DNA of 35,968 nucleotides from a candidate division WWE3 bacterium CSP1-7 (GTDB lineage Bacteria > Patescibacteriota > WWE3 > 9FT-COMBO-53-11). The stretch lies in contig LDXK01000005.1 in the NCBI GenBank assembly GCA_001443395.1, positions 1-35,968 on the forward strand, read 5' to 3'. This document shows, one piece after another, positions 2,265 through 35,948 of this stretch; position 1 is the stretch's first letter, and each line of letters opens with the position of its first letter. The notes below the pieces were generated by a model. That model was not told the DNA's origin. It did not search any database and worked only from the letters and a program-made list of their open reading frames with translations. A program made the translations under genes and the position numbers.

Positions 2265-2290
2265 GCTAGGCTGTTTCCATCAGCCGTCCA
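2265..2290 (+). repeat. Hairpin element, beta module
   Basis: GCTA-GGCTG-tttccat-CAGCC-GTCCA in the dprA/priA intergenic region; same tags as the other copies. Confidence 0.7.
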
Positions 2291-2310
2291 TTTCCCTTAT
2301 TATAAAGTCG

Positions 2311-3651
2311 ATGTCTACATTTGCCGAAGTTGTTATCGACAGCTACCAAGATCCCACCAAGCGACTCTTTACCTACCAAGTGCCGGAGAATCTAATCGGT
2401 TCTGCTAGGGAAGGGGTAAAGGTGGTCGCACCCTTCGGGAAACGGGTGGTGGAGGGATACATCTGGAGTATCACCCCCACCAAACCCCCCTTCCCCACCA
2501 AGCCAATCCAAGAAATTAAGGAATCCGGCTTTAGCAAAATTCAACTAGAGCTTGCCAAATGGATGGTGAAGCACTATTTGGCCTCCCCCCTCGATTGCCT
2601 AAAATGCCAGATCGGCGGAAAGGGCGAAAAATCGGCCAACTCTCCGGTGGAAACCGTTGCCACCCTCCTTCTGGTTCCCTCCGTCTCTCAAGTAAAGTTC
2701 CGTGCCAGCACCGAGAAGCAAAAGAATTTGATGATCGGTTCCCGCTCTGCGGTCTTCGCCCAGCTCCCCAACTTGAAAAAAATCATCATCGAGGAGCCCG
2801 ATAATTGGAATTACAAAGATGAACGCACCCCCTACTACCACGCCGTTGAGGTTGCCCAAAAAAGAGCCGAGATCGAGGGTCTGGAGATTGAGATGCTTCC
2901 CCAGAATCCCAAAATCAAACCGAGCCGGATCGCTGATCTGGACCTGGAAAAATTGGCCGGTAATTTTACCCTCATCTCTCAACCTCTAGAGGGTGCTCTA
3001 ACTTCCGGAAAGTACACGATAGTCTATGTTAATTCCAGAGAATTACAGGATAAAATAAGGGAGGAAATTCACAGAATTGGCACAGATAAGAACCAGTATG
3101 AGATCATCGGACCGGAACTTTTTTCCGCGCTGGGAAAGGAGTCCCACTACACCGTCTGGGCCGACGTTGATACCCTTCTAAATCTGCCGGATTTTCGCGC
3201 CCACGAAAAGATAATTTGGACGGTTCAAAAGCTGTCGCAGATCACCAAAGGGGAGCTGATTCTTCAAACCTCATCGCCCCAGAACCCGCTTTTTGCGGAT
3301 CTGGCCGCCGGAGATCTCACCGATTTCTACCAGCGGGACCGAAAAGCCCGGCGAGAACTTGGTTACCCCCCCTTCTCAACTCTGGTTAAGCTCAGTTTCT
3401 CCGCCAAGAGCTCCGCTAAAGCCAATTCGGGAACAGAAAAGCTCTTAGAAAAACTTAAAAACCTCGACTCTCGGCTGATCATCTCTCTCCCGTATGAATC
3501 CTACGCCAAAACCCCGGGAAAGATTCAAATTAACGTCGCCATTAAGTTGCCGCTCCCGACCAAGGCGGGTCAGCCTTGGGCTGGTGCTAAACTAGCAAGG
3601 GCGATTCCTCCCGAATGGAAAGTGGAGGTCGACCCGGAGTCGCTGTTATGA
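2311..3651 (+). CDS. priA: Primosomal protein N' (PriA)-like, shortened and helicase-degenerate
   Basis: N-terminal LFTYQVP...VVAPFGKR 3'-DNA-binding domain, IGSRSAVFA, LNLPDFRAHE, RRELGYPPF, VEVDPESLL. No Walker A and no Cys-rich region. Start moved to ATG 2311. Confidence 0.85.
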   Translation: MSTFAEVVIDSYQDPTKRLFTYQVPENLIGSAREGVKVVAPFGKRVVEGYIWSITPTKPPFPTKPIQEIKESGFSKIQLELAKWMVKHYLASPLDCLKCQIGGKGEKSANSPVETVATLLLVPSVSQVKFRASTEKQKNLMIGSRSAVFAQLPNLKKIIIEEPDNWNYKDERTPYYHAVEVAQKRAEIEGLEIEMLPQNPKIKPSRIADLDLEKLAGNFTLISQPLEGALTSGKYTIVYVNSRELQDKIREEIHRIGTDKNQYEIIGPELFSALGKESHYTVWADVDTLLNLPDFRAHEKIIWTVQKLSQITKGELILQTSSPQNPLFADLAAGDLTDFYQRDRKARRELGYPPFSTLVKLSFSAKSSAKANSGTEKLLEKLKNLDSRLIISLPYESYAKTPGKIQINVAIKLPLPTKAGQPWAGAKLARAIPPEWKVEVDPESLL

Positions 3652-4166
3652 AAATCGTTACCAACCCTAATAAAATCCTCAATCAGCCCACCCGAAAGGT
3701 GGCCAAATTCGATGATAATCTCCACCGAACCGTCCGGGAAATGGAAGAGATCCTCCGAAATCAGCGCAATCCGGAAGGGGTTGGGCTCTCCGCCAACCAG
3801 GTTGGGTTGGATCTGCGGTTGGCCGTCGTTCGCTTAAATCCGGATGAACAGGACAGCGCCGCCCACTTCCTGACCATTATTAATCCCGAGATTACCTCCC
3901 GATCGACGGGTCAAGAGGGAGAGTATGAAGGCTGTCTTTCAATTCCCAATCAATACGGACCGGTCGTCCGTTCCAAAGCCGTCACCGTCCGATTCCAAAA
4001 TCTCAAAGGAGAAACCCTCACGATCAAGGCCACGGACTTTCTTGCCCGGATATTTCAGCATGAAATTGACCATCTGGATGGGGAGTTAATCACGGCAAGG
4101 TCCGCCGGCCCTTTCCTCACCGAAACCGAACTGGAAGAGAAATTTCGCGAAAAGAAATCCGGTTAA
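3648..4166 (+). CDS. def: Peptide deformylase
   Basis: GVGLSANQVG, EGCLSIP, QHEIDHLDG; ATGA overlap with the priA stop gives start 3648. Confidence 0.97.
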   Translation: MKIVTNPNKILNQPTRKVAKFDDNLHRTVREMEEILRNQRNPEGVGLSANQVGLDLRLAVVRLNPDEQDSAAHFLTIINPEITSRSTGQEGEYEGCLSIPNQYGPVVRSKAVTVRFQNLKGETLTIKATDFLARIFQHEIDHLDGELITARSAGPFLTETELEEKFREKKSG

Positions 4167-4184
4167 AATGCTAAGCTGAATCCG

Positions 4185-5078
4185 ATGCGGCCAAGAATCA
4201 TTTTCTTCGGCACTCCCGTATTTGGTCAAATTGTCCTCCGAAAGTTGTCGGACGACAACTTTAATGTCGTCGCCGTGGTCACCCAACCGGATCGACCGGT
4301 CGGCCGAGACCAAAAACTCACCCCCTCTCCCGTAAAAACTTTCGCCAAAGAGAACAAAATAAAAATCTTTTCCCCCGCCGACAAGGGTGAGCTATCAACT
4401 ATTAACCGTAAACTGGCAAAGCTCAAACCCACCCTCTTCGTTGTCGCTTCCTATGGAATGATTGTTCCCTCCGAAACCCTCCTGATACCGGAGAAAGGTG
4501 CCCTAAACGTTCATCCGTCTCTGCTTCCCAAGTACCGGGGAGCTTCGCCGATCCAAGCGGCGATCCTGAACGGAGACACGGAGACCGGAGTGACCATTAT
4601 GCTGATGGATGAGCAGATGGACCATGGGCCGATTGTTTCCCAAGAAAAAATAGCCCTTAGCCCCGCCGAAACCACGGCCACCGCCATGGCCAAACTCGCC
4701 CAGGTCGGGGGGAAAATCTTGGTCAGAACCATTCCGGTCTATCTGGAAGGAAAGCTCAATCCCCGACCGCAGGACCACACTCAAGCCACCTACACCAAGC
4801 TGGTCAAAAAGGATAATGGGCGCGTCAACTGGCAAGATAACAACATCCAGGTGGAACGAATGGCCCGAGCCTACAATCCCTGGCCGGGAGTCTGGACCAC
4901 CGTTGGAGAGATGGCCGAACAGTTGGATCGGGAACTCAAAAACCAGCGCCATCAAAACCTTAGGCTTAAGATTCTCCAAGCCCATCTCGAAAACGGAACT
5001 CTCTCGCTCGATGCGGTCCAGGTCGAAGGGAAAAAACCTATCGGCTTCGATGACTTCACTAAAGGATATCTCACTTAG
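4185..5078 (+). CDS. fmt: Methionyl-tRNA formyltransferase
   Basis: FFGTPVF, VVTQPDRPVGR, NVHPSLLPKYRGASPIQ, MDHGPI, RAYNPWPG; adjacent to def. Confidence 0.97.
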   Translation: MRPRIIFFGTPVFGQIVLRKLSDDNFNVVAVVTQPDRPVGRDQKLTPSPVKTFAKENKIKIFSPADKGELSTINRKLAKLKPTLFVVASYGMIVPSETLLIPEKGALNVHPSLLPKYRGASPIQAAILNGDTETGVTIMLMDEQMDHGPIVSQEKIALSPAETTATAMAKLAQVGGKILVRTIPVYLEGKLNPRPQDHTQATYTKLVKKDNGRVNWQDNNIQVERMARAYNPWPGVWTTVGEMAEQLDRELKNQRHQNLRLKILQAHLENGTLSLDAVQVEGKKPIGFDDFTKGYLT

Positions 5079-5110
5079 TGAATTGCAACCAAGCACAGCG
5101 AGGACGGCAT
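5064..5110 (-). repeat. Hairpin element, alpha/TTGCAATT module, overlapping the fmt stop
   Basis: 5081-5110 aattgcaaccaagcacagcgaggacggcat matches the reverse complement of 34497-34526 at 25/30 positions. Confidence 0.7.
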
Positions 5111-5560: not shown

Positions 5561-5588
5561 ACCCGCTTTATCTAAAAAGCGGGTTTTT
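5561..5588 (+). terminator. Intrinsic terminator
   Basis: acccgcttt/aaagcgggt stem plus T tract. Confidence 0.75.
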
Positions 5589-5591
5589 ATT

Positions 5592-5624
5592 AAAAAAACC
5601 CTCCCTGGTTTCCCAAGAAGGGTT
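5592..5624 (-). terminator. Intrinsic terminator (near-duplicate of 5936-5966)
   Basis: Minus strand aacccttcttgggaaaccagggagggttttttt. Confidence 0.75.
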
Positions 5625-5632
5625 GGTGGTCT

Positions 5633-5812
5633 TCAGCTCTTGGGAGGGCGAATCATCCACCCCACCAGAGCCATCAAACCGAAAAGCACGACAACCACGG
5701 CCACGATCAGACCCCAGAATATCCCGGCCTGATTCGCAACCTCCATCCCGGCTCCGAGCGCAACGACCATGATGATCGCGCTCAGAAGCGCACTCACAAC
5801 CTTTCCCATCAT
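5633..5812 (-). CDS. Small two-TM membrane protein, 59 aa (absent from the ORF track)
   Basis: Translated by hand: MMGKVVSALLSAIIMVVALGAGMEVANQAGIFWGLIVAVVVVLFGLMALVGWMIRPPKS. SD aaggagg upstream, TTGCCC-17-TAGAAT promoter, terminator downstream. Confidence 0.75.
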   Translation of the reverse strand: MMGKVVSALLSAIIMVVALGAGMEVANQAGIFWGLIVAVVVVLFGLMALVGWMIRPPKS

Positions 5813-5840
5813 CTCCGGCCTCCTTCTCCTGAAGAGTAAG

Positions 5841-5890
5841 TGCTGTCCTAGCTAACACTAGGTTGCAATTCGGCAGATGTGCCGATGTGC
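5841..5890 (+). repeat. Hairpin element, alpha/TTGCAATT module
   Basis: TGCTGT-cctag..ctagg-TTGCAATT-cggca..tgccg-atgtgc; same layout as 8933-8985 on the minus strand. Confidence 0.7.
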
Positions 5891-5974: not shown

Positions 5975-6340
5975 CTATTGCAGCGATGTCGAGACAGCCG
6001 CTTCGCAAAAGAGTTCTCCCTCCACCGGAATCTCAATCGAACCAGAGACTCCGACGGGAAGATGGCTGCGCAGTTGAATCGCCGCCAGTGTGATCACTGC
6101 CCCCCAGTCCTCGTCCAGACGATCACGATCCTCGGTTTCGATCCGCACCCGGAAATCATCTCCCCTGGGAGAGACCCACTCCTCCCCAGATCCGTAGCGA
6201 ATGATCACATCTTCCGGCACCAATTTGTCGCCCGGAACCGACAGCGCCTCCGCCAAGATCCTGGGGAGAAACGCGACGAGCCGGTCCCGCAACCCGGTTT
6301 CTATCGCCCGATCGGCACAGTCCAGAATCACGAATAACAC
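5975..6340 (-). CDS. Hypothetical protein
   Basis: SD aggaggag before GTG 6340; followed by a terminator. Confidence 0.7.
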   Translation of the reverse strand: MLFVILDCADRAIETGLRDRLVAFLPRILAEALSVPGDKLVPEDVIIRYGSGEEWVSPRGDDFRVRIETEDRDRLDEDWGAVITLAAIQLRSHLPVGVSGSIEIPVEGELFCEAAVSTSLQ

Positions 6341-6396
6341 GTCTCCTCCTCTCATGTCTGAAACCGGTAGATTTTCTTAAATAGTAATCGCGAACG

Positions 6397-7809
6397 GTGA
6401 AAAAGTCAATCGGACGACTTTTGGACGGCTCGCTTTGCGAACCTAGCAATCTCGTTTCACTCGATTGTGCGAAAATGGCCTTGATGTACTTGACTAAATC
6501 TCGGGAGAGATTTTCGATTTCCTCTCTCCTTTCTCCAAAGTTTTTTTACTTTTTAGCGGTACTGGCCGTGGTTACGAGTGCTTTGAGCGTCTACACCAAT
6601 CTACGCTCCGAGAAAAATACTCCCAAGAACGAGCCCGTTACCGAGGAGATTGACTCGAATGAAAAAGCGCTGACCAAGGCCGAGGATAAAGTCCTTCCCA
6701 AAACTACCCCCCAGCCGGAACTGAATGTCGGGTCAGAACCAACGCCGACGCCGAAAACTAAACCCACCCCAAAACCCCTGCCGGCCAGCACCGTCACCCG
6801 AAAAGTCCTGGTGCTGGATTTCGATCCAATTGTTAACGGCCAACGGCTCCACAATCTTTTGGGTTGGGAAAATCCGCAAGCACTGGAGACGCAGTTCGTC
6901 GTTGATGTCAAAAGCGCCAGCGGGAACTATGTGAACTACCAAATTGTGGAACACCGTCAGCTGGACGATTTCCCCGTTCTCAACAGCGGATTTGATTTCG
7001 ACGGTGACAGCTTTCTCGACTGTTGGAATGACCTTGATCGTCCCGAATCTAAGTGCCATACGTCGGTGGGGGTGGATTACAACAAGCTTCTCACTGATTA
7101 CGGTTCAGACGTCTGCGCAGCGCGCAACAGCGGAGCAATCCATGAGGTATGGGTCTGGGGTGGCCCCTACTTCGGCTTCTACGAATCGCGCCTGGCCGGC
7201 CCGGGCGCTTTTGAGTACAACTCGCCCCCGCTCACGGGAACATCCTGCAACAAACAGCTGCCGATCATGGGGTTTAGCTACGAACGGGGGGTGGCGGAAA
7301 TGTTGGAGGATCTTGGCCACCGAACGGAAGCGGCGATGTCCCACACCTACGGGGGGGGGGCGGAAAACCGGACCAGCCACAACTGGGACCGGTTTGGTTT
7401 GGTCAAAGCCCAATCACCAGATTATGACTACAGTGGTTGCGGTTCGGTCCATTACGCTCCCAATTCCCTTTCCGACTATGACTGGAGCCGCTCCAGTCCG
7501 GCAAAAAGCACCTGCCAGGATTGGTTGAATTACCCTTACCTTACCGGGGCAACCCAGCAGATCGGCTGCTCCTCCTGGGGCTGTAGCGGTTACGGTTACC
7601 TCAAATGGTGGTTCTCTCACCTCCCCCACTTCACCGGCGTGGCTCCGGACGGCAAGTGGAACAACTGGTGGCGCTATGTTCTGGATTACAAAGAGGCGAC
7701 CGCCCTCAATCCCTGGCAGGAATTGCTATCCAGATTTCTGGTCTTTTGGGGAAACATCACCACCGCCCTTAGGAGTGGCTTCGGGTCAGCGGCTTTTGAG
7801 AAAAATTGA
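6397..7809 (+). CDS. Membrane-anchored secreted protein with a possible zincin-like domain; start uncertain (6397, 6475 or 6484)
   Basis: TM segment, Pro/Thr linker, globular domain with HEVWVWGGPYFGFYES and EMLEDLGHRTE, several Cys. Confidence 0.75.
   Translation: MKKSIGRLLDGSLCEPSNLVSLDCAKMALMYLTKSRERFSISSLLSPKFFYFLAVLAVVTSALSVYTNLRSEKNTPKNEPVTEEIDSNEKALTKAEDKVLPKTTPQPELNVGSEPTPTPKTKPTPKPLPASTVTRKVLVLDFDPIVNGQRLHNLLGWENPQALETQFVVDVKSASGNYVNYQIVEHRQLDDFPVLNSGFDFDGDSFLDCWNDLDRPESKCHTSVGVDYNKLLTDYGSDVCAARNSGAIHEVWVWGGPYFGFYESRLAGPGAFEYNSPPLTGTSCNKQLPIMGFSYERGVAEMLEDLGHRTEAAMSHTYGGGAENRTSHNWDRFGLVKAQSPDYDYSGCGSVHYAPNSLSDYDWSRSSPAKSTCQDWLNYPYLTGATQQIGCSSWGCSGYGYLKWWFSHLPHFTGVAPDGKWNNWWRYVLDYKEATALNPWQELLSRFLVFWGNITTALRSGFGSAAFEKN
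6421..6470 (-). repeat. Hairpin element, alpha+beta modules
   Basis: Reverse complement cgagattgctaggttcgcaaagcgagccgtccaa matches 9064-9097 at 30/34. Confidence 0.85.
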
Positions 7810-8315: not shown

Positions 8316-8389
8316 TGGCAGGCCCGGGAGGAGTCGAACCTCCAAAGCTCGCTCTGGAGGCGAGCGGTTTGCCATTAGCCTACGGGCCT
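8316..8389 (-). tRNA. tRNA-Trp (CCA)
   Basis: AGGCCCG/CGGGCCT acceptor stem, CTCGC-ctCCAga-GCGAG anticodon arm, GGTTCGACT T-loop, encoded CCA. Confidence 0.95.
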
Positions 8390-8549
8390 AGATCTTCGTC
8401 TCTTTGTGGAGCGTATACTTCCGCTCCTTCGGACAGAACTTCTTAAACTCCAGCTTTTCGGTAGCGTTTTTGTTCCTGCTCGTGGTGTAGTTGATACTGC
8501 CGCACTCGCTACACTTTAGTCTGATAAAAATTCTTAAACTTTTTGCCAT
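8388..8549 (-). CDS. rpmG: 50S ribosomal protein L33 (Zn-binding type)
   Basis: [19 protein letters not shown]...[18 protein letters not shown]; start ATG 8549. Confidence 0.95.
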
Positions 8550-8558
8550 TTTATTATC

Positions 8559-8634
8559 TGGAGCCGACACCCGGGGTCGAACCGGGGACCTCATTCTTAC
8601 CAAGAATGCGCTCTGCCAACTGAGCTATGTCGGC
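8559..8634 (-). tRNA. tRNA-Thr (GGT)
   Basis: Canonical 76-nt cloverleaf, anticodon loop ttGGTaa, CCA end. Confidence 0.96.
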
Positions 8635-8639
8635 ACTGT

Positions 8640-8726
8640 TGGTGCTAGGGGAGGGATTCGAACCCCCGTAGCCACAAGGGCACCTCGTCTACAGCGAGGC
8701 GCATTTGACCGCTCTGCCACCCTAGC
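8640..8726 (-). tRNA. tRNA-Tyr (GTA)
   Basis: Long variable arm, anticodon loop ctGTAga, CCA end. Confidence 0.96.
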
Positions 8727-8733
8727 AAACCTC

Positions 8734-8808
8734 TGGAGCCGGTGACAGGGATTGAACCTGTGACAACCTGTTTACAAAACAGGTGCTCTACCGCTGAGCT
8801 ACACCGGC
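8734..8808 (-). tRNA. tRNA-Thr (TGT)
   Basis: CCTGT-ttTGTaa-ACAGG anticodon arm, CCA end. Confidence 0.96.
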
Positions 8809-8810
8809 CT

Positions 8811-8992
8811 GCGGTTTATTTCGCGCTAGCGAAAGTAGCGATCTCCGATCGCGTCTAAAACAGCTGCTCTGCCGTTGTATCGTCCTCGCTAACGCTCGAA
8901 CGACCGGTAGTGCTCCTTGCGTGTGCACTACCTAGCTACCTCGACACGAACTGCCGAATTGCAACTCGCCACAGGCGAGACAGCACCTCGGC
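8811..8992 (-). repeat. Cluster of about four hairpin elements interleaved with tRNA-Thr-like 5' fragments
   Basis: Beta modules at 8835-8858 and 8902-8935, alpha-type at 8876-8903 and 8933-8985. Interspersed minus-strand pieces GCCGAGGT, AGCT, CAACGGCAGAGCAGCTGTTTT, TAAACCGC. Confidence 0.6.
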
Positions 8993-9038
8993 GAATATTA
9001 ACATTTTAACACGGGAATACTGCTAAAATGCCTCTAAG

Positions 9039-9593
9039 ATGCCCAATCACAACCAAGCACCAGCGAGGTTGCTAGGTTCGCCCAGCGAGCCGTCGAATGT
9101 TCGCCAGCAGATAATCCAAACCGCCATTGAGAGCATCGAGACCAAGATGCGGGCGCGCCGCTCCTGGATCGAAAGGCTGGAGGACCGGATTGCGGCGGTC
9201 TTCGGAACGACCGAGTTCCTCTTTCTTAATATTGCCTGGTTTGGGACCTGGCTGTTGCTCAACTCGGGGGTAATACCCGGGGTGAAGCCGTTTGATCCCT
9301 TCCCGCACATCTTTCTGACCACAACGGTTTCGCTAGAAGCCATCATTCTGGCCATCTTTGTCCTCATCACCCAAAACCGACAGGAACGGATTAATAGCCT
9401 GCGGGAGGAGATGGGACTGCAGATCGACACCATCACCGAACAGGAAAATACAAAAATTCTCAAAATCCTGGCCGAAATCCTGAAAAAAATGGGGGTGGAT
9501 GTCACCCATGACCCTGAACTCAAGCAGATGCTGGAGCCTCTCAACCAGGAGGAGATTGAACGTCAACTCGAGAATCAGCTTAAGAGGAAATAG
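9039..9593 (+). CDS. DUF1003-family membrane protein with a repeat-derived N-terminal segment
   Basis: FDPFPHIFLTTTVSLEAIILAIFVLITQNRQ signature; TGCTAAAAT extended -10 just upstream of the ATG. Confidence 0.85.
   Translation: MPNHNQAPARLLGSPSEPSNVRQQIIQTAIESIETKMRARRSWIERLEDRIAAVFGTTEFLFLNIAWFGTWLLLNSGVIPGVKPFDPFPHIFLTTTVSLEAIILAIFVLITQNRQERINSLREEMGLQIDTITEQENTKILKILAEILKKMGVDVTHDPELKQMLEPLNQEEIERQLENQLKRK
9050..9097 (+). repeat. 48-nt alpha+beta hairpin element inside the DUF1003 ORF
   Basis: 44/48 identical to 15794-15841. Confidence 0.92.
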
Positions 9594-9606
9594 GTAATAA
9601 GGTAAA

Positions 9607-9651
9607 TGGGCGGCCCAACGTTGTCGGACCTAGCTTTTTGCTGAGGCAAAA
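9607..9651 (-). repeat. Hairpin element (small alpha hairpin plus beta module)
   Basis: Minus strand ttttgc-ctca-gcaaaa-a-GCTA-GGTCCGAC-aac-GTTGGGCC-GCCCA. Confidence 0.65.
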
Positions 9652-9807
9652 AAAGAAGCCCACCCGGGCGTCGGCTCTTTGAGCTGAGCAAATCCCACGT
9701 AAAGAAAAGTGGGTCCCCGCATCCCCGGTCCAAGGACCGAGGAGATTGAGGGTCCCTGCTAAGCAAGTTTGCGGAATTGCTCACCGGCCAAACGAACCAG
9801 GCAGGCC
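9648..9807 (-). ncRNA. Rod-shaped ~160-nt RNA, candidate 6S RNA
   Basis: TGCTATATT -10 about 7 nt upstream. Closing stem GGCCTGCCTGG/CCGGGTGGGCT, TGAGCAATTCC/GGATTTGCTCA helix, central bubble, terminal TCCTCGGTCC/GGACCGGGGA stem, ends in a T tract. Confidence 0.6.
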
Positions 9808-9848
9808 AACCCGAATATAGCACATCTGCGGTGGGTGTTTCTCTGGAT

Positions 9849-10460
9849 TTAGATGCCTCTAAAGAAGAGTACCGCCGAGACCACGAAGAGAACCGCCCAC
9901 ACCCTCCGGTCCCACTTCAACACCTTCGCCCCGTCCAGAATCCCCAACGGCAGAAGATTAAAAAGAGCCAGCCAGGCGTTGATTTGATAACTGGAAGCGA
10001 CCAGGTCAATTCCACGGGTTTCATAGAGCGGCAGAACCAGGGAGACCCCGGCGAGGGAGAGCAATCCAAAGAACACCGCCAGAATAATGTTGACCACCGC
10101 TCCGGCCGCGGCGATCTTCCCGTAGGTGTCGACGCGCGTCACTCCTCCGATCACCACCGCCCCGGGGGCGGCGAAGACAAAACCGGTGAAAGAAAGGAGA
10201 ACCGCAAGAAGCAGGAACAGATCATCGGCGCGAAATTCGGCAAAAAGATGGTAACGCTGGGCCAGGAACTTGTGACCCAAGACCTCGTGCGCGATGAAGG
10301 AAAAACCAACGGTGATGGAGTAGATCGCAAAGGCCCGGATCAGAACCGGCAGGCCCAGGGTGGAGATGGATTCGAATCCCAGAATCGCGATCGCAATCGC
10401 CAGCGAAACCGCCACCCAGGCCTTGATCAAATCGCGAATTTCTTCGGGAGAAAAATTCAT
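9849..10460 (-). CDS. Site-2 protease / peptidase M50 family membrane protein
   Basis: AHEVLGH, IAAAGAVVN, FNLLPLGILDG motifs; multiple TM segments. Confidence 0.88.
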   Translation of the reverse strand: MNFSPEEIRDLIKAWVAVSLAIAIAILGFESISTLGLPVLIRAFAIYSITVGFSFIAHEVLGHKFLAQRYHLFAEFRADDLFLLLAVLLSFTGFVFAAPGAVVIGGVTRVDTYGKIAAAGAVVNIILAVFFGLLSLAGVSLVLPLYETRGIDLVASSYQINAWLALFNLLPLGILDGAKVLKWDRRVWAVLFVVSAVLFFRGI

Positions 10461-10525
10461 CAGTACAGCTTAGCGCAGAAGAACCTTCTGAAGCAATAAA
10501 CACAGTATGTTAAACTCTTCGAGTC

Positions 10526-10735
10526 ATGGCAAGAAAATGTGAAAATTGCAGCAAGGGATTTATGGCCGGACACGCCGTTGCCCACTCCAAACTGAGTTCG
10601 AACCGGAAATTTAGACCAAATCTCCAAAAATATTTGGGGAAATGGTTCTGTGCCTCCTGTCTGAAAAAGCTAAAAAGCTACTCGCAAACGCCGGCGGTCG
10701 TGACCACGGTTCCTTCATTAACAGCGACACAGTAG
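10526..10735 (+). CDS. rpmB: 50S ribosomal protein L28
   Basis: MARKCENCSKG..GHAVAHS...NRKFRPNLQ...CASCLK. Confidence 0.92.
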   Translation: MARKCENCSKGFMAGHAVAHSKLSSNRKFRPNLQKYLGKWFCASCLKKLKSYSQTPAVVTTVPSLTATQ

Positions 10736-12795
10736 GGTTCCCCATTTGCTCTATCGTATATTGTGATCCCCGTTGGAACTTCCGAATCACCCACCGTTAA
10801 GAACTTAACTTTGAGATTTTCAACGATGGCGGAAGCGATTTCAGCCATCTTAGTGATTAGCTTTTCGAACCATCCTTCTTCAGCTTCCACACCTATGAGT
10901 TTGAGCTGATCTGGAATCTCAACACTGGCGGTTCCTTCAGGAGTGATCTCCGTACCTGGATCCCACCATCCGGGGTTGACGAAAACTCTGATCTTGGAAA
11001 CCGAGTCCCCACTGTGAGAACCGAGAGCAACACCCACGATCCTTCCTTTTTCGGTCGCCTCGATACCAACACCGGGAATATCGGAAGCGGTAATCAAATC
11101 CCCGGGCTGAACATTACCGGTAACTTTTGTTAGAATCTGCCCCAAGAAACCCACAATCGCTTGATCTGCCTCGGGTTCCTCGGACTTAGCGTTCCCCACA
11201 AATCCGGCGGTATCAGACACTACTCCAATGGTATGTTCCCCGGTCACCGCTTTCTTCCCTGACCCTGAGATTGAGATGATGTCGCCTTGGCTAACCGGGG
11301 AAGAAACATCGACGTACTCGGCGTAGTCCGCCCCGCCCGTTTCGTAAGCTACCCCGCCACTATTGAGCCGAATCCTTCCCACTCCTGTTCCATCGTCCTC
11401 CCCGGTTGCACTCGCATAGAACGATATAAACCTCGAGCTGGCCCCGGACGTATCGTCGGTACCAAGACCCAATCGCAGAACTTGGACATCGGCATCATCG
11501 GTCGTCGTCAGATCCACTACCCGAGCGATTCCGTCCGAGCCGTAGTCCTCCAACACGCTGAGATAACCGAGAGTGCCGGTTGCCAAGCCAGTGAAAACTC
11601 CACTCTCAAAGAAGGAAGGCTGAATGGTGCGTAGTTCGCTGTCGTCCACCGTAAATAGCTCGATTGACGCCCCGTCCATAAGAACCCGAAAAGCCTCCCC
11701 AGTATCGTCATTATCATTATCGAGAAAGACGCCCACGTCAAAGTAAGATTCCAAACTAATCCCGTTGTTGAGCAGATTAAGCGCGTTAGTGGAATTGGCA
11801 GTAGTCCTAAGCTGCTCCCCGATCGTCAGGTTGCCGTTCATGTAGCTATCCCCAGCCTCCGCATAGACCGCCCAGATGTTGGTACAACCGGCACAGCTCT
11901 GGTTACCGATGAAGATACCGTAGTTGTCGGTGATGGTTCCTCCCCCGCTGTTGATCGGGCTGCCAATCAAAAGGCCGTAGGCCTCATTGATCGTCCCGGT
12001 GGAGAGGTTGGCGATCGCGGGGTTGTAGAAACCGATGGCGCGGTCGATCGTTCCCGTGCTGTTGTTCCCGACCGACGTATAAACCCCGACCGCTTCGGTG
12101 ACGTCGCCGGAGCTCATGTTGAGGAAGCTCCCCCGCACCCCCGCAACGGCATAGGCCGTCTCGCCGGAAACACCGTAGTACCGGGTACGGCCCTGAACTC
12201 CCATATAGATATTGGTACCAGGAGTGGCGTCGTCGGCATAGAGGAAGAGATCGAAGACACCGGATTTCACCAGAGAATCGGTTCCGGTAGTATCGGAGCG
12301 AAAAACGTGCAGGGGTTCCTCGGGAGCGGTGGTGCCGATTCCGACTCGATCCGTCACCGTCGTTAGCCGAACCGTTGCCCCGTCATCCGTCCAACCGGTG
12401 GCAGGAAATGTGTCGATGTAGTAGCTGCCAGACTGGCCGTCCAGAAGATCGGCATTTAAATTGTCAACCAGGCTGGTGCTGTTAACGACAAGAGGATCGG
12501 AGTCGGTGGCGGTCGAGATCAGTTGAGATCCCTCCAGATTTCCCACCAACGAAAGATTGAAATTTTCGTCCAGAACTCTGTCCAGAGTGACGGCGCTTCC
12601 CCCTTGCGTCAAAACCCCCCGAACCTCTCCGATCAACGGATAAAAACCGGACAGAATTCCGGAAACTACCAAAATGGAGAGAAGAATTTTGAGCTTGGAT
12701 TGGAATTTGGACCGTCTCTCGGGTGGAAGAGAACCAACCACCGAAACAGGCTGCGGTGCGTAAATCGTAACCGGACCCTGGGCAGGGACAGACAT
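10678..12795 (-). CDS. Membrane-anchored surface/fibre-like protein with a peptidase G2 (IMC)-like domain
   Basis: TM anchor, NLNADLLDG, RVGIGTTAP..LHV fibre motifs, GGADYAEY...IGVVS...GQILTKV...GDLITAS. Start ATG 12795 lies 7 nt after TGCTATGAT. Confidence 0.8.
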   Translation of the reverse strand: MSVPAQGPVTIYAPQPVSVVGSLPPERRSKFQSKLKILLSILVVSGILSGFYPLIGEVRGVLTQGGSAVTLDRVLDENFNLSLVGNLEGSQLISTATDSDPLVVNSTSLVDNLNADLLDGQSGSYYIDTFPATGWTDDGATVRLTTVTDRVGIGTTAPEEPLHVFRSDTTGTDSLVKSGVFDLFLYADDATPGTNIYMGVQGRTRYYGVSGETAYAVAGVRGSFLNMSSGDVTEAVGVYTSVGNNSTGTIDRAIGFYNPAIANLSTGTINEAYGLLIGSPINSGGGTITDNYGIFIGNQSCAGCTNIWAVYAEAGDSYMNGNLTIGEQLRTTANSTNALNLLNNGISLESYFDVGVFLDNDNDDTGEAFRVLMDGASIELFTVDDSELRTIQPSFFESGVFTGLATGTLGYLSVLEDYGSDGIARVVDLTTTDDADVQVLRLGLGTDDTSGASSRFISFYASATGEDDGTGVGRIRLNSGGVAYETGGADYAEYVDVSSPVSQGDIISISGSGKKAVTGEHTIGVVSDTAGFVGNAKSEEPEADQAIVGFLGQILTKVTGNVQPGDLITASDIPGVGIEATEKGRIVGVALGSHSGDSVSKIRVFVNPGWWDPGTEITPEGTASVEIPDQLKLIGVEAEEGWFEKLITKMAEIASAIVENLKVKFLTVGDSEVPTGITIYDRANGEPYCVAVNEGTVVTTAGVCE

Positions 12796-14568: not shown

Positions 14569-14573
14569 AAAAG

Positions 14574-26534: not shown

Positions 26535-27077
26535 ATGAAATCCTGTCCGTTCTGCGCCGAGGAGATCCAGGACGCCGCTGTTGTTTGCAGACACTGTGGC
26601 CGGGAGCTTGTTCCCCAGACGACTCCTGAAAAGGAGGCGCTCGCCAAGAGCGCAGGCGTGCTGGAGCAGTCCATCCTGAACTACACGAACGTCGGCTGGA
26701 TGCTGGTGAGTCGGACCGATCGAATGGCCCAGCTCAAGAAACCCAAGAAGTTCAACTGGGGCTGGTTCCTCTGGTGGCTCCTGATCGGTATGATCGCCTT
26801 CGCCCTGCCGGTCATCCTCTACCTGATCTACTACGCGGCCAAGAAGGACGAGCTCGTCACTCTTTCGATCAATGACGCCGGCGAGCTGCTGGTCAACGGG
26901 GGGAAGCCGGCAACGGCGGCGATCACCAACACCGTGTCAGCTCCACTGCCGAGCCCTGAGCAGGTCGCCAAGAATCGGCGAACGCTCCTGATAGTGCTCG
27001 GCGTCCTGGCCATAGTGTTCGTAGTTCTGCCGACGGCCTGCGCCATCTTCGGTGCCATCGCCAACAGCTTCAATTAG
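26535..27077 (+). CDS. Zinc-ribbon domain membrane protein
   Basis: CPFCAEEI...CRHCG, hydrophobic segments; SD aaaggag before ATG 26535. Confidence 0.85.
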   Translation: MKSCPFCAEEIQDAAVVCRHCGRELVPQTTPEKEALAKSAGVLEQSILNYTNVGWMLVSRTDRMAQLKKPKKFNWGWFLWWLLIGMIAFALPVILYLIYYAAKKDELVTLSINDAGELLVNGGKPATAAITNTVSAPLPSPEQVAKNRRTLLIVLGVLAIVFVVLPTACAIFGAIANSFN

Positions 27078-27118: not shown

Positions 27119-27185
27119 ATTAGTAATTACCTGCTATACTATAGGGTTAGAAAACAAACTATCCGCCTGGGGCGGGGAAGGAGAA

Positions 27186-27444: not shown

Positions 27445-27530
27445 GCGCCTCCCCCTCTTTGTTGCCATAAATTTGGATGCTAAGGGATAGTTTCTGCAAA
27501 CCAGAGATCAAAGTAACAAAATTATCTCTT

Positions 27531-27550
27531 ATAGTATACTATATATAGTA
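27531..27550. repeat. 20-bp AT-rich palindromic box, copy 1
   Basis: atagtatactatatatagta, identical to 33813-33832. Confidence 0.8.
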
Positions 27551-27651
27551 TAACAAAACATTTTCACACTTTTGCGGTTTCTCTTCCAGTCTGATACACT
27601 ATAGGTATAACCTAAAATTACAGTCGCCTGAGGCGACAAGGAGAGATTTCG

Positions 27652-28494
27652 ATGAATGCCAAGCTGATGTTTGCCCTGGTTCTTGCGTTTGCGCTGGCCG
27701 GGTGCAACGGGACGGTTCCGCCGGTCACGGCCGAACCCACCGCGGTAATCCCGACGGAGGTTCCCCCGACCGCAGTTCCCTCCCCGACTCCCACTCTTGA
27801 GCCGACGACGATCCCGACCGAGGTCCCGCCTACCCCGACCTTGGAACCGTCCCCCACTCCCACGGTGACACCGATTCCGTCGGTCTGGGAGATTGCTGAG
27901 AAGATGTTAGCGGAGTGCTCTCTAGTTTTTGACATGACACAGACGCCCCCATCTTGGATGAGAGCGGACTTCTCCTACGGCGAAGCGTCCCGGTGGTATA
28001 TCGAGGAGTTTTTCTGGCGCCAATGGTGGCGGGGAAATCCTACCCCCAGCCCAGACGAATATCCAACGACCGCTGGCCCGAACACGTTCTCGCCAACCTT
28101 GGCTCCTTTGGGAGAGTACGAGCTGGAGATCGCGGTTCAGATTATCGCCGTCCATCCGGAATTCGTCCAGGTAGGCCCAAGGGGATTGCGACTTTGGAGT
28201 TTCGCAATCGGTACCCAGATGTTGCGCAACAACGGCAAGTACCACAATCCCTTCGGCGAGGTCGACCAGCTCTTTGTTACAGCACCTTCCGGAGATTTCT
28301 TGCCGGACGAATACGAGAACAGCTTTTGCCCGTTCTCCTTTCTCTTCACCGAGTTTCCGCCGGAGGAGAACGGAGATGGGGATGGAATTCTTGTTGGGAG
28401 GGCCTATCTCTTCTACGAGGTAGGTGGGACCGATCCTTTCAAGCTCGATGGCGAGTTGCGTGAAGTCATCTTTACCTTCCCGCCCGTTCCGTAA
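27652..28494 (+). CDS. Putative lipoprotein with a Pro/Thr linker (paralog 1)
   Basis: LAGC lipobox, PT-rich repeats, C-terminus shared with 29190-29861; SD aaggag. Confidence 0.85.
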   Translation: MNAKLMFALVLAFALAGCNGTVPPVTAEPTAVIPTEVPPTAVPSPTPTLEPTTIPTEVPPTPTLEPSPTPTVTPIPSVWEIAEKMLAECSLVFDMTQTPPSWMRADFSYGEASRWYIEEFFWRQWWRGNPTPSPDEYPTTAGPNTFSPTLAPLGEYELEIAVQIIAVHPEFVQVGPRGLRLWSFAIGTQMLRNNGKYHNPFGEVDQLFVTAPSGDFLPDEYENSFCPFSFLFTEFPPEENGDGDGILVGRAYLFYEVGGTDPFKLDGELREVIFTFPPVP

Positions 28495-29093: not shown

Positions 29094-29189
29094 ATTTTTC
29101 TAAATTTAAACTTGATTTTTCCCGTTTTTTCTGTTATCCTATAGCTATAACCTAAACTATATCCCCCAAGGGGGAGAGGAGAGATCGAG

Positions 29190-29861
29190 ATGAACCGCAA
29201 GCTGATCTTCACCCTGTTCGCGCTTGTTTTGACCGGGCTACTGACGGCCTGCAATGGGACGGTTCCGGTGACGGTCGAATCCACCGCGGTGATCCCGACG
29301 GAGGTTCTCCCGACCGCAGTTCCCTTCCCGACTCCCACTCTTGAGCCGACGACGATCCCGACGGAGGTTCCTACTCCTACAGCCACGCCAGATCCGGTGA
29401 TGGCGATCGTTTGGGATATTGCCCAGCAGATGCTGGCGGAGTGCACCGGGGCGTACACCATCTATGATTTTAAGCCTGAGTACTCGATAGAAGCTCAGCA
29501 GGCTTACATGGATCAACTGTGGACACGCGTCTCGGAGCACCCTGAGATCTGGAGAGAGGTGGGTGGGGGTTCTTCCCAGGTAGTGTCTTTACTCTCCGAA
29601 ACATGGGTGCTTGCCAACGATGGCGTGAATCCCAACCCGTTCGCTCTGGCAGAGGACCGAAGCGAATCACCGTCTGATTCCGAGATGATGTTCTGCGAAG
29701 GGTATGTTCTGACCTACGACGGAACAATCGCAGAAAACAAGGACGGGGACGGCATCTTGGTCGGAGAAGCCTACCTCTTCTATGAGGTCGGTGGAACCCA
29801 ACCGTACGTGCTGGATGGGGAGCTGAAGGAAGTCATCTTTACCTTCCCGCCCGTTCCGTAG
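29190..29861 (+). CDS. Putative lipoprotein with a Pro/Thr linker (paralog 2)
   Basis: LTAC lipobox, PT-rich linker nearly identical in DNA to paralog 1, same EVIFTFPPVP end. Confidence 0.85.
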   Translation: MNRKLIFTLFALVLTGLLTACNGTVPVTVESTAVIPTEVLPTAVPFPTPTLEPTTIPTEVPTPTATPDPVMAIVWDIAQQMLAECTGAYTIYDFKPEYSIEAQQAYMDQLWTRVSEHPEIWREVGGGSSQVVSLLSETWVLANDGVNPNPFALAEDRSESPSDSEMMFCEGYVLTYDGTIAENKDGDGILVGEAYLFYEVGGTQPYVLDGELKEVIFTFPPVP

Positions 29862-29871: not shown

Positions 29872-29906
29872 AGCCGCTCAGCTACCAAGCCGAGCGGCTT
29901 TTTTTT
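29872..29906 (+). terminator. Intrinsic terminator
   Basis: agccgctc/gagcggct stem plus T tract. Confidence 0.75.
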
Positions 29907-29941
29907 GCACCAGCAAAACTAGGTTCGCGGAGCGATCCGTC
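29903..29941 (+). repeat. Hairpin element, alpha+beta modules
   Basis: ttttgc-acca-gcaaaa-CTA-GGTTCGC-gga-GCGATCC-GTC. Confidence 0.8.
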
Positions 29942-29985
29942 TTTTGCTTGCTCTCACTTACTTCAGCTATATTGATACTGAATAA

Positions 29986-33777: not shown

Positions 33778-33812
33778 AGCTTAATTTCTTTAACCTCCAA
33801 AATTTGTTTATC

Positions 33813-33832
33813 ATAGTATACTATATATAGTA
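33813..33832. repeat. 20-bp AT-rich palindromic box, copy 2
   Basis: Identical to 27531-27550; lies between two convergent gene ends. Confidence 0.8.
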
Positions 33833-33842
33833 AAACAGACCT

Positions 33843-35948
33843 CTACCTCTTGAAAGATTCTTTGAAGGTTAAAAAGATAAACGGTAGGAGCGCCAGCTGG
33901 CGCCTAATTCTCCATGACTGTTTCGGTTGTTTTTTGACCAACCGATAGAGCCATTCAAAACCTAATTCCCGAATCTTTTCCGGAGCCCGTTTTTGCACCC
34001 CGGCGGCGAAGTCAAGCGCTCCTCCCACCCCCATTGCCACCTTCACGTTGAGCTTCGGCAAATTCCGTTTGATCCATTTCTCCTGCTTCCCGTGACCGTA
34101 GGCCACAAAAAGCAGATCGATCGACTGCTTGGCCGACCGGTTAATTAGTTGAACGGTTTTGGCATCGTTTTCCGGCGAATCATCAGCAATTAGAGTACCG
34201 GCGACTTTGAGCTTGGGATAGCGGCGCTTGAGTTCCCTGGCCGCTCTTTCCGCGGAGTGTAAACCGGCTGATCCTTCCAACAGAAAAATCTGACCGCCGC
34301 GCCGTGCCGCCTCCTCGCAGAGGCGTAAAAAGAGGTCCGTACCAGCGACCCGCTCCTTAAGTGGAGTTCCCCAAATGCGGGACGCCCAAACCAGACCAAC
34401 CGTATCGGGAACCGCAAGGTCAGCCTGGTTCAATATCCGAGTAAATTCTTTATCCTGATGGGCAGCGATGATCATCTCGGAGTTTGGGGTAACCACATAC
34501 CGTCCTCGCTGCACTCGGTTGTAATTTGCTGTCGCAAAGTAAGCCCTTCGATCGGCTTTAAAGAAATCCCTTACCCGCTCCACCGCCTCATTCATCGTCA
34601 CATTGTCAACCTTGATCCCCAAAACATCCAACTTCGACGTATTGGTTATTACTTCCAACTTGGCTTGATACCAACAAGCCACCGCCAAGCCCATCAAAAC
34701 CCACGTAAACTCCAAGCCGTAGTGGGCGTGGAAGATATTGGAAAAGAGCAGGGCGACATAGGCCGCGAGCAAACCCGCAATGCGCCATTTCCAAACGTTT
34801 TCGCGCTTCAGTCTATCGAAAAGACGATAAAGAAAGTAAATTACGACCGTCGCCAGAAAAAGGTTTGCCGCCAAACCCAGTATCCCCATCTCCCCCAACC
34901 AAGTAAGGAGGATCGAATGGGAATAGCAGGCCGGGCTTCCCGGATTTAGAACACTGCGGCAGTAGGGCTCAAAGTTTCCGACCCCCACTCCAAACAACGG
35001 ATTCTTGATAAACATCTGCCCGGAGTCCTGGACGTAGGTCAAGCGGTTCAGGGTCGATCCCAAGCGATTGGTGACGGTAAAGAAAATTCCTAACCCCAAG
35101 ACCGCGACCGCGACGGTGATAATCGCGACCCTAATAACCCGCGGATTGAATCGATCCTTCAGATAGAGATAGGCAAAAAGCCCCACTCCGGCGAGTAGTC
35201 CCAGGGCAGCGCTCCGAGAGACCGCCATCAGAAAGTAGAGAGAGGAAACAGCCAGCAGCATCCCAATCAACACCCGCCGCAGGTCCTCTCTCTTCCAGCT
35301 CAGGAACCAACCAAACCCCAGAATTAGGAAAATCCCGACGAAGGATGCTCCGGTAGTGACGTCAATAAAGGTGGAAGGCGGCCGCAGGAAGTGGTCGAGC
35401 ATCCCGATATCCCAACGGGCCCGCCAACTTATCAGGCCGTAGAGGGACTGGAGAAAGGTATCGGCCGGGAGAGTCTTCGCCGAAAACCACCGTTCAAAAA
35501 ATAGGGTCGGATCTCCCCCCAGAGCATAGTGGAAAAACTGCCAGATACCAAGCAGGGCCACGGTGGCGGAGCCGATTCCCCACCCCCAAACCAGCCGCGC
35601 CAATCCTCGCTCGCTTCGCACGCTCCAGATGATCAAGTAAAAGAGGCCGATCATCAGCAGATGGAAAACCACGACCTGAAAGCTCTGGAACCGGTCGAAA
35701 GAGAAGATAATTGAGAGAATCTCCGTGGAAACCACCGCCGCCAGGGCCGGAAAAAGAAAAGTCGGGGTGGGGGTTAAGCGTGTCTTGAGAAGAAGCGCCA
35801 GACCGACGATCGGGAGAAGGATCAGAGAGATTTTCAAAGAAAAATCCAGAGAGGGAACAAAGATGTTCAGGCGCTCGAAGATTGTCGAAAAGACCAGCAA
35901 AGCCAGGAGCCATGAGCCAGGAGCCCGAAGACTAGAAAATTGAGCCAT
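33843..35948 (-). CDS. O-antigen ligase/polymerase-like membrane domain fused to a WecB/TagA/CpsF glycosyltransferase
   Basis: Multi-TM region with SRSA, NPLFGVGVGNF, YSHSILL..LGEMGILG; C-terminal VVTPN, ERVAGTDL, G.GKQEKW, GVGGALDF, EWLYRL. Confidence 0.88.
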   Translation of the reverse strand: MAQFSSLRAPGSWLLALLVFSTIFERLNIFVPSLDFSLKISLILLPIVGLALLLKTRLTPTPTFLFPALAAVVSTEILSIIFSFDRFQSFQVVVFHLLMIGLFYLIIWSVRSERGLARLVWGWGIGSATVALLGIWQFFHYALGGDPTLFFERWFSAKTLPADTFLQSLYGLISWRARWDIGMLDHFLRPPSTFIDVTTGASFVGIFLILGFGWFLSWKREDLRRVLIGMLLAVSSLYFLMAVSRSAALGLLAGVGLFAYLYLKDRFNPRVIRVAIITVAVAVLGLGIFFTVTNRLGSTLNRLTYVQDSGQMFIKNPLFGVGVGNFEPYCRSVLNPGSPACYSHSILLTWLGEMGILGLAANLFLATVVIYFLYRLFDRLKRENVWKWRIAGLLAAYVALLFSNIFHAHYGLEFTWVLMGLAVACWYQAKLEVITNTSKLDVLGIKVDNVTMNEAVERVRDFFKADRRAYFATANYNRVQRGRYVVTPNSEMIIAAHQDKEFTRILNQADLAVPDTVGLVWASRIWGTPLKERVAGTDLFLRLCEEAARRGGQIFLLEGSAGLHSAERAARELKRRYPKLKVAGTLIADDSPENDAKTVQLINRSAKQSIDLLFVAYGHGKQEKWIKRNLPKLNVKVAMGVGGALDFAAGVQKRAPEKIRELGFEWLYRLVKKQPKQSWRIRRQLALLPFIFLTFKESFKR
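34497..34544 (+). repeat. Hairpin element (alpha/TTGTAATT module) inside the TagA domain
   Basis: ataccgtcctcgctgcactcggttgtaatt-tgc..gca-aagtaagc; 25/30 match to the reverse complement of 5081-5110. Confidence 0.7.

Follow-up and report, generated by a model that had tools for sequence, protein, structure and literature searches.

REPIN-RAYT systems consist of non-autonomous hairpin repeats, built from repetitive extragenic palindromic (REP) sequences, whose movement in trans is ascribed to a single-copy HUH Y1 transposase (the REP-associated tyrosine transposase, RAYT) with no obvious target duplication. The ends of IS200/IS605 insertion sequences and the attC sites of integrons are recognised as folded single strands, in which the structure and a few unpaired bases are conserved and the helices are not; IS200/IS605 elements insert next to a short target motif and leave no duplication, while attC sites carry the core sites RYYYAAC and GTTRRRY. 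Double-hairpin elements of Allomyces are reportedly known from the work of Paquin and colleagues. Excerpts on mitochondrial double-hairpin elements describe two adjacent hairpins that form one short mobile unit, occupy intergenic and genic positions, stay in transcripts and differ in their insertions between close species, and report no flanking duplication for the Allomyces elements (PMC2800124). Tagged REPs, according to excerpts of the survey by Di Nocera et al. (2013; PMC3733652), comprise 24 GTAG and 4 CGTC families from eight phyla, with mosaics known as bacterial interspersed mosaic elements (BIMEs). The CGTC families are described there as having 8-9 bp stems whose first two positions are A-T, loops of 4-5 nt, a CCA tail and no associated transposase gene, and they include the Rickettsia palindromic elements (RPEs) RPE-4 and RPE-6 (PMC3733652). 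In the full-text literature searched, outside which most subscription journals lie, no REP-like or hairpin repeat family was found described in Patescibacteria, the candidate phyla radiation (CPR). The present analysis concerns a 35,968-nt stretch of DNA from candidate division WWE3 bacterium CSP1-7 (contig LDXK01000005.1, positions 1-35,968), hereafter the window, which contains a family of gene-less units of about 45 nt, most of them composed of two hairpins with fixed unpaired tags. These units are probably very small non-autonomous mobile DNA elements of the REP, BIME and RPE kind in a WWE3-like genome.

Two-hairpin units and their insertion

Alignment and folding of the copies define one type of unit, termed alpha-beta, in which hairpin A, CTA, hairpin B and GTC follow one another in that order. 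Hairpin A has 5-9 bp and is often closed by CAAY/RTTG, with one sub-family carrying a tandem G.A/A.A mismatch; hairpin B has a stem of 5-10 bp, usually closed by GG/CC, and a loop of 2-5 nt, with CTA before it and GTC after it both unpaired, and measures 22-29 nt including these tags. In almost every copy, the 3' foot of hairpin B carries CGTC. The length from CAA to GTC is exactly 45 nt at 9050, at 15794 and at position 9366 of a syntenic relative (L001), and 44 nt at 6424-6467. The second type, gamma, reads TRC-YGT-hairpin-TT-GYA, in which a 3-bp stem on the outside and a variable hairpin on the inside are joined by a conserved internal loop, YGT/TT; the outer stem covaries, being TGC/GCA in three copies as against TAC/GTA in the wecG copy. 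In total, nine alpha-beta and four gamma units were tallied in the window, or about one per 2.8 kb. They are given below with one doubtful hairpin; R1 denotes a covariance model of hairpin B and its tags trained on nine copies, and the repeat labels are those of a repeat finder run independently.

2247-2291, forward strand: alpha-beta unit upstream of priA, with a 7-bp hairpin A that overlaps the dprA start codon; matched in the descriptor scan; R1 31.6 bits (training copy), fold z-score -4.9
5084-5109, reverse strand: gamma unit (TGC-CGT-hairpin-TT-GCA, with a tandem G.A/A.A mismatch) directly 3' of the fmt stop codon; the site first annotated at 5064; repeat I3
5841-5888, forward strand: gamma unit accompanied by another hairpin, antisense to the minus-strand open reading frame (ORF) 5568-5858 and within its leader region; z-score -3.1
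6421-6467, reverse strand: alpha-beta unit of 44 nt (CAA to GTC), lying upstream of ORF 5975-6355; repeats I1 and I2; R1 40.4 bits (training copy)
8819-8858, forward strand: alpha-beta-like unit of the GCGATC stem subtype, first annotated at 8835, adjoining tRNA-Thr and present in the relative L002 too; R1 8.9 bits
8902-8935, reverse strand: doubtful beta hairpin, kept in the relative L003 with a compensatory change and without the CTA tag; missed by R1
8960-8985, reverse strand: gamma unit with a further flanking hairpin, the site first annotated at 8933; identical in L001; z-score -3.9
9050-9094, forward strand: alpha-beta unit of 45 nt (CAA to GTC), placed in frame close to the start of the DUF1003 gene and adding 15 residues; repeat D6
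9606-9652, reverse strand: alpha-beta unit between the convergent ends of the DUF1003 gene and an M50-like gene; identical in L001; R1 28 bits (training copy)
15792-15838, forward strand: alpha-beta unit in rplJ (gene on the reverse strand), of which 45 nt are missing in L001, L002 and L003; encodes 15 residues
18196-18254, forward strand: dimer of beta hairpins, the first inverted and the second forward, with a spacer between them and direct-repeat flanks CAATAG; missing in L001; z-score -5.4
26419-26459, forward strand: alpha-beta unit upstream of ORF 26475-27077; R1 29.2 bits (training copy)
29903-29944, forward strand: alpha-beta unit after an intrinsic-terminator-like hairpin and upstream of the PA14 gene, with TTTTGC on both sides; repeats D8 and D18; R1 31.9 bits (training copy)
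34498-34544, forward strand: gamma unit in the Wzy/WecG fusion gene (gene on the reverse strand), a 42-nt in-frame insert encoding YFATANYNRVQRGR; repeat I3

The first-pass annotation of this DNA had described hairpin modules with fixed tags, and its 11 beta sites and four sites in a second context (GCYGT...TTGYAATT) all read in the sequence as it claimed, with copies in both orientations. The tagged hairpins hold, and the true unit is instead a two-hairpin composite of about 45 nt. From the 3' tag given there, GTC(C/T)(A)A, the GTC is retained; the YAA that follows it is target sequence at rplJ, where it is already present in empty alleles. The inverted doublet reported at 18201-18254 is real, and an alternative reading of 18196-18254 as one unit, with a hairpin A that encloses the inverted beta hairpin, is equally possible. 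Most of the listed copies likewise stand, apart from 8902 and perhaps 8835, which are old conserved hairpins.

The elements are mobile. A profile search of genome contigs with an alignment of ribosomal protein L10 gave, among the matches listed, three useful relatives: the syntenic L001, 85-100% identical, whose entire 11.3-kb contig matches window 8586-20490, and the more distant L002 and L003. The source names of L10 and DUF1003 homologues place the host within Patescibacteria near candidate division WWE3. Empty sites, which the first-pass annotation had asked to be sought in relatives, were found in DNA and protein alike. In rplJ, 45 nt of the window are missing from all three relatives, and the gap can be placed in two ways only, 1 nt apart, so that there is no target duplication of 2 nt or more; the TAA after GTC pre-exists in the empty alleles. 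Conversely, a 44-nt alpha-beta unit with the same tags and quite different stems occurs only in L001, at window position 10504, and the unit at 18196-18254 is missing from L001, where the spacer around it has also diverged. Where the synteny between the window and L001 has diverged, each of the three units is thus lineage-specific. Window 8586-10100 equals L001 except for 9082-9084 (CCA versus GTG, in the loop of a hairpin B) and one base at 9981, while other shared DNA, outside two hypervariable stretches, is 70-91% identical per 500 nt; this near-identity may stem from recent recombination, from a chimera in the assembly, or from change or conversion of the element that is specific to the loop.

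Three proteins carry in-frame inserts at such sites. In L10, the 15-residue insert is present in 2 of 34 sequences, the second carrier being a 99%-identical cluster of 13 members (P0004), and the 32 other homologues lack it, including one (P0005) that is 94% identical outside the gap. In an AlphaFold2 model of L10, the predicted local distance difference test (pLDDT) score drops below 50 nowhere but in the insert, residues 70-84, and at the C-terminus. In WecG, the 14-residue insert YFATANYNRVQRGR is found in 3 of 43 sequences (that of the window, an identical cluster and one 75%-identical protein); 39 homologues have no insert there and one has a different insert of 5-6 residues. For DUF1003, a 15-residue insert occurs in 2 of 23 homologues, with 19 lacking it and two truncated and uninformative: the 96%-identical P0180 is without it, and a 78%-identical homologue has a related 15-residue insert in the same place. 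When the 9050 insert is delimited against the empty protein, it begins with CAA and ends with GTC, which differs by one base from the most parsimonious placement in rplJ. Because the insert-bearing clusters P0004 and P0060 hold 11-13 member sequences each, they are not single-assembly artefacts. Four of the six frames of the 45-nt unit are open, which helps explain its survival inside genes.

The inserts are also patchily distributed, being shared with 75-78%-identical homologues and absent in closer or equally close ones (P0185 versus P0180; P0076 versus P0061 and P0062), a pattern that, at the level of these alignments, could result from insertion recurring at one site, from precise excision or from recombination. 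At five other positions, 8 of the 32 other L10 homologues (P0006, P0010, P0012, P0023, P0026, P0028, P0032 and P0037) have short inserts of a different sequence, 7-25 residues long, with AKGGPASGG-like and DPPTLKA...AQ-like segments recurring among them. Such inserts look common in the clade, and the insertion process may be general there, so far as protein-level data indicate.

Covariation, enrichment and database searches

The stems of hairpin B differ between copies and still pair, as had been claimed from first inspection. R1 was searched with filters off over the window and L001-L003, and with default filters over negative controls consisting of the other 77 loci retrieved (L004-L080, from other phyla; 1,237,662 nt). 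Across the 12 aligned matches, 11 of them distinct, pairing holds in 93.5% of cells and five of the seven hairpin B pairs have changed on both sides, counts that are inflated by related copies and by two rows orthologous to other rows. The covariation score of 0.561 was reached by none of 500 column shuffles, and sliding the partner by 1-3 columns left at most 58.6% of cells paired. G.T wobbles on the canonical strand occupy 9 of 77 cells. The scores of 28-40 bits in the window and L001 belong to training sequences or to an identical L001 orthologue. Outside the training set, the model gave 18.1 bits (E=0.0025) at L003 9800-9831 and a weak 16.2 bits at window 18199-18225, the inverted half of the dimer, as against a best score of 12.3 bits in the 1.24-Mb controls. 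The L003 match belongs to a full alpha-beta unit (9800-9851) with the same tags and wholly different stems, of 6 bp in hairpin A (closed by CAAT/ATTG) and 10 bp in hairpin B. Site 8835 scored 8.9 bits with E=4, and 18231 and 8902 were not listed; the copies with GCGATC stems and 8902 were not recovered by R1, and their membership is uncertain.

The repeat finder independently recovered the family: 9050-9098 and 15794-15842 are 92% identical over 49 nt (D6), 6421-6454 is the reverse complement of this pair at 85-88% identity (I1/I2), 29919 shares 23 nt, I3 links 5081-5110 with 34497-34526, and D8 and I10 also fall in the family. A loose descriptor of CTA, hairpin and GTC matched 11 times in the window against 3.5 ± 2.0 in 200 dinucleotide shuffles (maximum 10), a modest, roughly three-fold enrichment, and its matches at 17420, 22131, 33751 and 8855 are clearly unrelated to the family. 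Tighter descriptors and the covariance model were therefore used instead. The version with a GG-closed stem matched seven times against 0.52 ± 0.73 in shuffles (maximum 4), and 0.17 times per 36 kb in the controls; the version with a hairpin directly upstream matched 10 times against 1.7 ± 1.4 (maximum 7). The motif GCTAGGT occurs eight times (1.8 expected) and TTGYAATT seven times (1.6 expected), counts reached in none of 100 shuffles each. The gamma descriptor matched four times against 0.06 ± 0.24 in 300 shuffles, an optimistic enrichment since the descriptor was written after the four copies had been seen. A comparable density, which had been named at the outset as grounds for abandoning the family, was found neither in shuffled sequence nor in the 1.24 Mb of unrelated genomes.

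Rfam gave no match overlapping an element at the gathering score or at E<=1 over the window, its matches there being tRNAs, the L10 leader and sub-threshold chance matches only; ARAGORN reported only the four tRNAs, and a unit queried by blastn had no match in phage or plasmid collections. No transposase or nuclease family, Y1_Tnp included, was found among 51 ORFs of the window (37 and 14 searched against Pfam, 12 against NCBIfam), nor was an integrase family found in the window, nor a RAYT in the window or the three related loci. ORF 5975-6355, which is flanked by two elements, was considered as a candidate enzyme and set aside, having no family match and, by eye, no HUH motif. The first-pass annotation had proposed a structure-recognised, non-autonomous and possibly undescribed family, had reported no mobilising enzyme in the window and had named a match to a catalogued repeat or Rfam family as grounds for refutation. 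The searches likewise found no such enzyme there and gave no Rfam match, and a mobile family stands; recognition by structure, the analogy with REP and RAYT, and the enzyme itself are inferences.

Possible mechanism, alternative explanations and neighbouring features

The fixed bases of both types sit in internal loops, CTA opposite GTC and YGT opposite TT, between freely varying helices. Fixed bases in such a setting are what RAYTs read in REPs, TnpA in IS200/IS605 ends and integron integrases in attC. If the units are indeed small non-autonomous mobile elements, each would be recognised as a folded single strand through its hairpins and conserved internal-loop bases, and would be moved in trans by an enzyme encoded elsewhere. 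The likeliest such enzyme would be an HUH Y1 transposase (RAYT or IS200-type), or else another structure-specific recombinase; HUH Y1 is favoured, with low confidence, because duplication is lacking and the tags are REP-like. Insertion would prefer sites with NAA on the 3' side, as is seen at five units, and genic copies would survive only where their frame and their length, 45 or 42 nt, do not disrupt the protein.

The six nucleotides after GTC tend to repeat the first six of the unit, with a mean of 3.8 identities against 2.8 for mismatched pairs of element and flank; 85 of 20,000 permutations reached the observed mean (11 units). The repeat is complete (6/6) at 18196 and 29903 and reaches 5/6 at 2247, at 26419 and in the L003 unit, while the near-identical copies at 9050 and 15794 are without it. 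Either copy of the repeated bases is therefore open to pairing with the 3' arm of hairpin A, and such pairing lengthens hairpin B beyond a 3x3 internal loop. The repeat could stem from a variable target duplication combined with fold-back copying, from a choice of target by pairing, or from selection for the extended stem. The flanks themselves vary, from 0-1 nt at rplJ to CAATAG (18196), TTTTGC (29903) and TA..TA (wecG).

Several alternatives can be weighed against this evidence. The units could be functional cis elements (promoters with leader hairpins, or signals for RNA stability or protein binding) kept by selection, with spread being secondary. This would account for the central tag TTGCTAGGTT, which fits the extended -10 pattern TGnTAnnnT, for the six of nine alpha-beta units that point towards or along a nearby transcript (2247, 6421, 9050, 9606, 26419 and 29903), for the conservation of 8819-8858 and 8902-8935 in distant relatives and for the G.T wobbles on the canonical strand. 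It is nonetheless unlikely, given that units lie antisense in rplJ and wecG and that three of the four gamma units are antisense to local transcripts, a mixture of orientations that argues for a DNA-level element; presence and absence moreover vary among genomes 85-94% identical, and some units lie within coding sequence, where they are predicted to add peptide. A promoter role and mobility are in any case compatible with each other, and the fit of TTGCTAGGTT to a pattern also seen before several leaderless-looking starts makes outward transcription a plausible side effect. Classical MITEs (miniature transposable elements with inverted repeats), moved by a DDE transposase with a fixed target-site duplication, would suit the dimer at 18196-18254, which has 5-nt inverted ends (GACGC/GCGTC) and CAATAG on both sides, as well as the TA on both sides of the wecG insert and the TTTTGC flanking the 29903 unit. 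We consider them very unlikely, because the empty and filled rplJ alleles show at most 1 nt of repeated flank, the flank repeats are 3 to 6 nt or absent and not fixed, the alpha-beta ends (CAAY... and ...CCGTC) are not inverted repeats, and described MITEs are longer than 42-45 nt.

Insertion might also be templated or guided by the target, the target serving as template for the 3' arm of hairpin A or being selected by it through pairing. A partly target-derived hairpin A would explain why its stems are nearly all different, and both the flank repeat, complete at two units, and the pre-existence of part of the downstream repeat (GTGTTT) in the empty allele of the L001-only unit speak for it. 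At rplJ and in the DUF1003 gene, however, both arms of hairpin A arrived with the insert and the flank does not repeat; the shared CAA and NAA supply part of the signal, and the permutation test covers 11 units only, so that such templating appears quite unlikely. That the family consists of chance hairpins and terminators in a genome of 53% G+C, grouped by eye, is barely credible: the loosest pattern is only about three-fold enriched, one shuffle reached 10 and some matches are unrelated, but 49-nt copies are 92% identical, the tighter descriptors are enriched, R1 scores sequences outside its training set at 16.2 and 18.1 bits against at most 12.3 in controls, and insertion polymorphism is observed.

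The interpretation as mobile DNA of the REP, BIME and RPE kind thus remains preferred, and the following points weigh against it. The comparison covers no more than four genomes (the window and L001-L003), 72 kb in all, and the window yielded no mobilising enzyme. Close identity between copies is limited to 9050/15794 and, in part, 6421 and 29919, most stems being unique; fold z-scores, at -0.7 to -6.0, are modest in several instances; thermodynamic stability by itself is no discriminator, both strands being similar under DNA parameters. The alignment behind the pair counts was fitted to the model structure. The three units inside the near-identical block 8586-10100 carry no information on element age or turnover, and junctions are uncertain by 1 nt, the DNA reading at rplJ and the protein reading at DUF1003 differing by one base. 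The CAATAG, TTTTGC and wecG TA..TA flanks could be target duplications, and the units 8819-8858 and 8902-8935, conserved in L002 and L003, may be functional RNA or DNA structures instead of recent insertions.

These two old hairpins lie near the tRNA operon. The 8819-8858 unit is kept in L002 with a different loop and is, judging by this conservation, old or functional. The 8902-8935 hairpin, together with about 60 nt to its left, is kept in L003 beside the same tRNA operon (84% over 62 nt), where the counterpart has a compensatory stem change and lacks the CTA tag; it is probably part of a conserved leader or noncoding RNA of that operon. The surrounding conserved block, 8857-8950, stands upstream of the tRNA-Thr/Tyr/Thr-rpmG-tRNA-Trp operon, has an AAGGAG-like sequence in the loop of this covarying hairpin on the minus strand and could be a leader or an undescribed small RNA; Rfam (E<=10 over 8780-9830) and ARAGORN returned nothing at this block. 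Hammerhead-like cores and tRNA-like folds were looked for by eye in 8810-9040 and dropped, as nothing was convincing.

A more far-reaching possibility, which we regard as unlikely, is that the units are a new kind of minimal, gene-less 45-nt mobile DNA in which hairpin A is partly built from, or pairs with, the target, making them re-targetable by an enzyme not yet linked to such repeats. On this reading, an internal segment complementary to bases just upstream of the unit and just after its 3' GTC would guide target choice, or insertion, by base-pairing or fold-back copying, and such self-contained elements could decorate even ribosomal proteins in a streamlined CPR genome.

The density of about one unit per 2.8 kb, with turnover between genomes 85-94% identical, makes the family an active source of variation in streamlined Patescibacteria genomes, adding predicted loops of 14-15 residues to L10, a glycosyltransferase and a membrane protein, and it would affect gene calling, protein alignment and phylogenomic markers in CPR. 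Variable helices around fixed internal-loop bases also make the units a clean substrate for finding a structure-specific enzyme that acts on single-stranded DNA, and the flank repeat is a concrete handle on mechanism.

The window, with a G+C content of about 53%, contains dprA, priA, def and fmt, a tRNA/rpmG cluster at 8316-8808 on the reverse strand, the DUF1003 gene, a secE-nusG-rplKAJL cluster with the Rfam L10 leader, glycogen genes, the PA14 protein and the Wzy/WecG fusion. Several other features of this DNA were observed. A 448-nt cassette at 14574-15021, with a gene of the 23S-rRNA-intervening-sequence-protein family (14592-14978, reverse strand) and ACTTAGG-like heptad inverted-repeat flanks, is absent downstream of rplL in L001, which has an 85-nt hairpin of similar heptads between rplJ and rplL (L001 4942-5026); the cassette looks like a second mobile element, akin to an intervening sequence. 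L001 also differs from the window by a 29-nt insertion that forms a hairpin, located in rplA's N-terminal extension (3434-3462), and by a 39-nt insertion in rplL (5053-5091), neither of which matches the alpha-beta model. TGCTA-N3-T, which resembles an extended -10, stands 7-10 nt before an ATG without a Shine-Dalgarno sequence at 4167-4187, 9022-9041 and 12826-12846, an arrangement that suggests leaderless mRNAs. A short G+C-rich hairpin lies directly 5' of the Shine-Dalgarno sequence of four genes, several of them lipoprotein-like paralogues (approximately 26500-26530, 27160-27185, 27618-27645 and 29158-29185), and these hairpins may be leader stabilisers or translational control elements. 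An A+T-rich 38-nt repeat, 84% identical between 27518-27555 and 33800-33837 (D15), has a palindromic ATAGTATACTATATATAGTA-like core, lies in two promoter regions and looks like an operator. Paralogues include the lipoprotein-like genes 27652-28494 and 29190-29861, with segments 76-93% identical and similar terminators, and two GH57 genes (19219-20544 and 23192-24418).

Comparison with known systems

Integron attC sites share with the family the principle of conserved unpaired bases between variable helices, but the tags here are CTA/GTC and YGT/TT, and there are no core sites, cassettes or nearby integrase. As regards the ends of IS200/IS605 elements, two hairpins are present in the units, rplJ is free of duplication and NAA stands 3' of five units; the comparison has three empty sites only, and no TnpA was found in the window. 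Unlike either system, the whole unit measures 45 nt and is without a transposase gene. MITEs differ in their ends and flanks, the units here having ends that are not inverted repeats and flanks of 0 to 6 nt, with at most 1 nt repeated at rplJ.

The REPIN-RAYT systems are alike in being hairpin repeats without an enzyme of their own, and the dimer at 18196-18254 resembles a REPIN. Inverted dimers account for one of the nine alpha-beta units, however, and its two stems differ, while the other eight consist of two unlike hairpins in tandem; the copies are also highly diverse and do not form a near-identical sequence cloud. Rickettsia palindromic elements are comparable in inserting in frame, which lengthens the encoded protein by a short stretch, with the ORF left intact (45 nt in rplJ, 45 nt in the DUF1003 gene and 42 nt in wecG) in a bacterium with a small genome. 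RPE-1 is longer, at about 100-150 bp, and the comparison with RPEs is one of described features.

In architecture, the units are alike to the mitochondrial double hairpins and to yeast GC clusters as these are described in the excerpts, with no evidence of homology and with fungal or sponge organelles as hosts in the one case and a bacterial chromosome in the other (PMC2800124). The tagged REPs, the nearest class so far described, share several features with the units as portrayed in the excerpted survey: they are short palindromes bearing conserved tags that stay unpaired, their sub-families show complementary stem changes as well as G.T pairs, they occur singly or as inverted dimers, and some copies lie in ORFs or supply stop codons (Di Nocera et al. 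2013). They measure 20-40 bp and occur in many copies; hairpin B with its tags measures 22-29 nt, with 7-9 copies in 36 kb against 0.5 expected. The layout differs when compared with the text description of these families: here CGTC follows the hairpin on its 3' side, (G)CTA serves as the 5' tag, the stems, of 5-10 bp, close with G-C, and GTAG...CGTC can be read only in the 8819-8858 copy. The units further differ from tagged REPs, as there described, in forming a fixed two-hairpin composite of 44-45 nt with extreme stem diversity within one genome, and in belonging to Patescibacteria, a group that is not among the eight phyla reported in those excerpts (PMC3733652).

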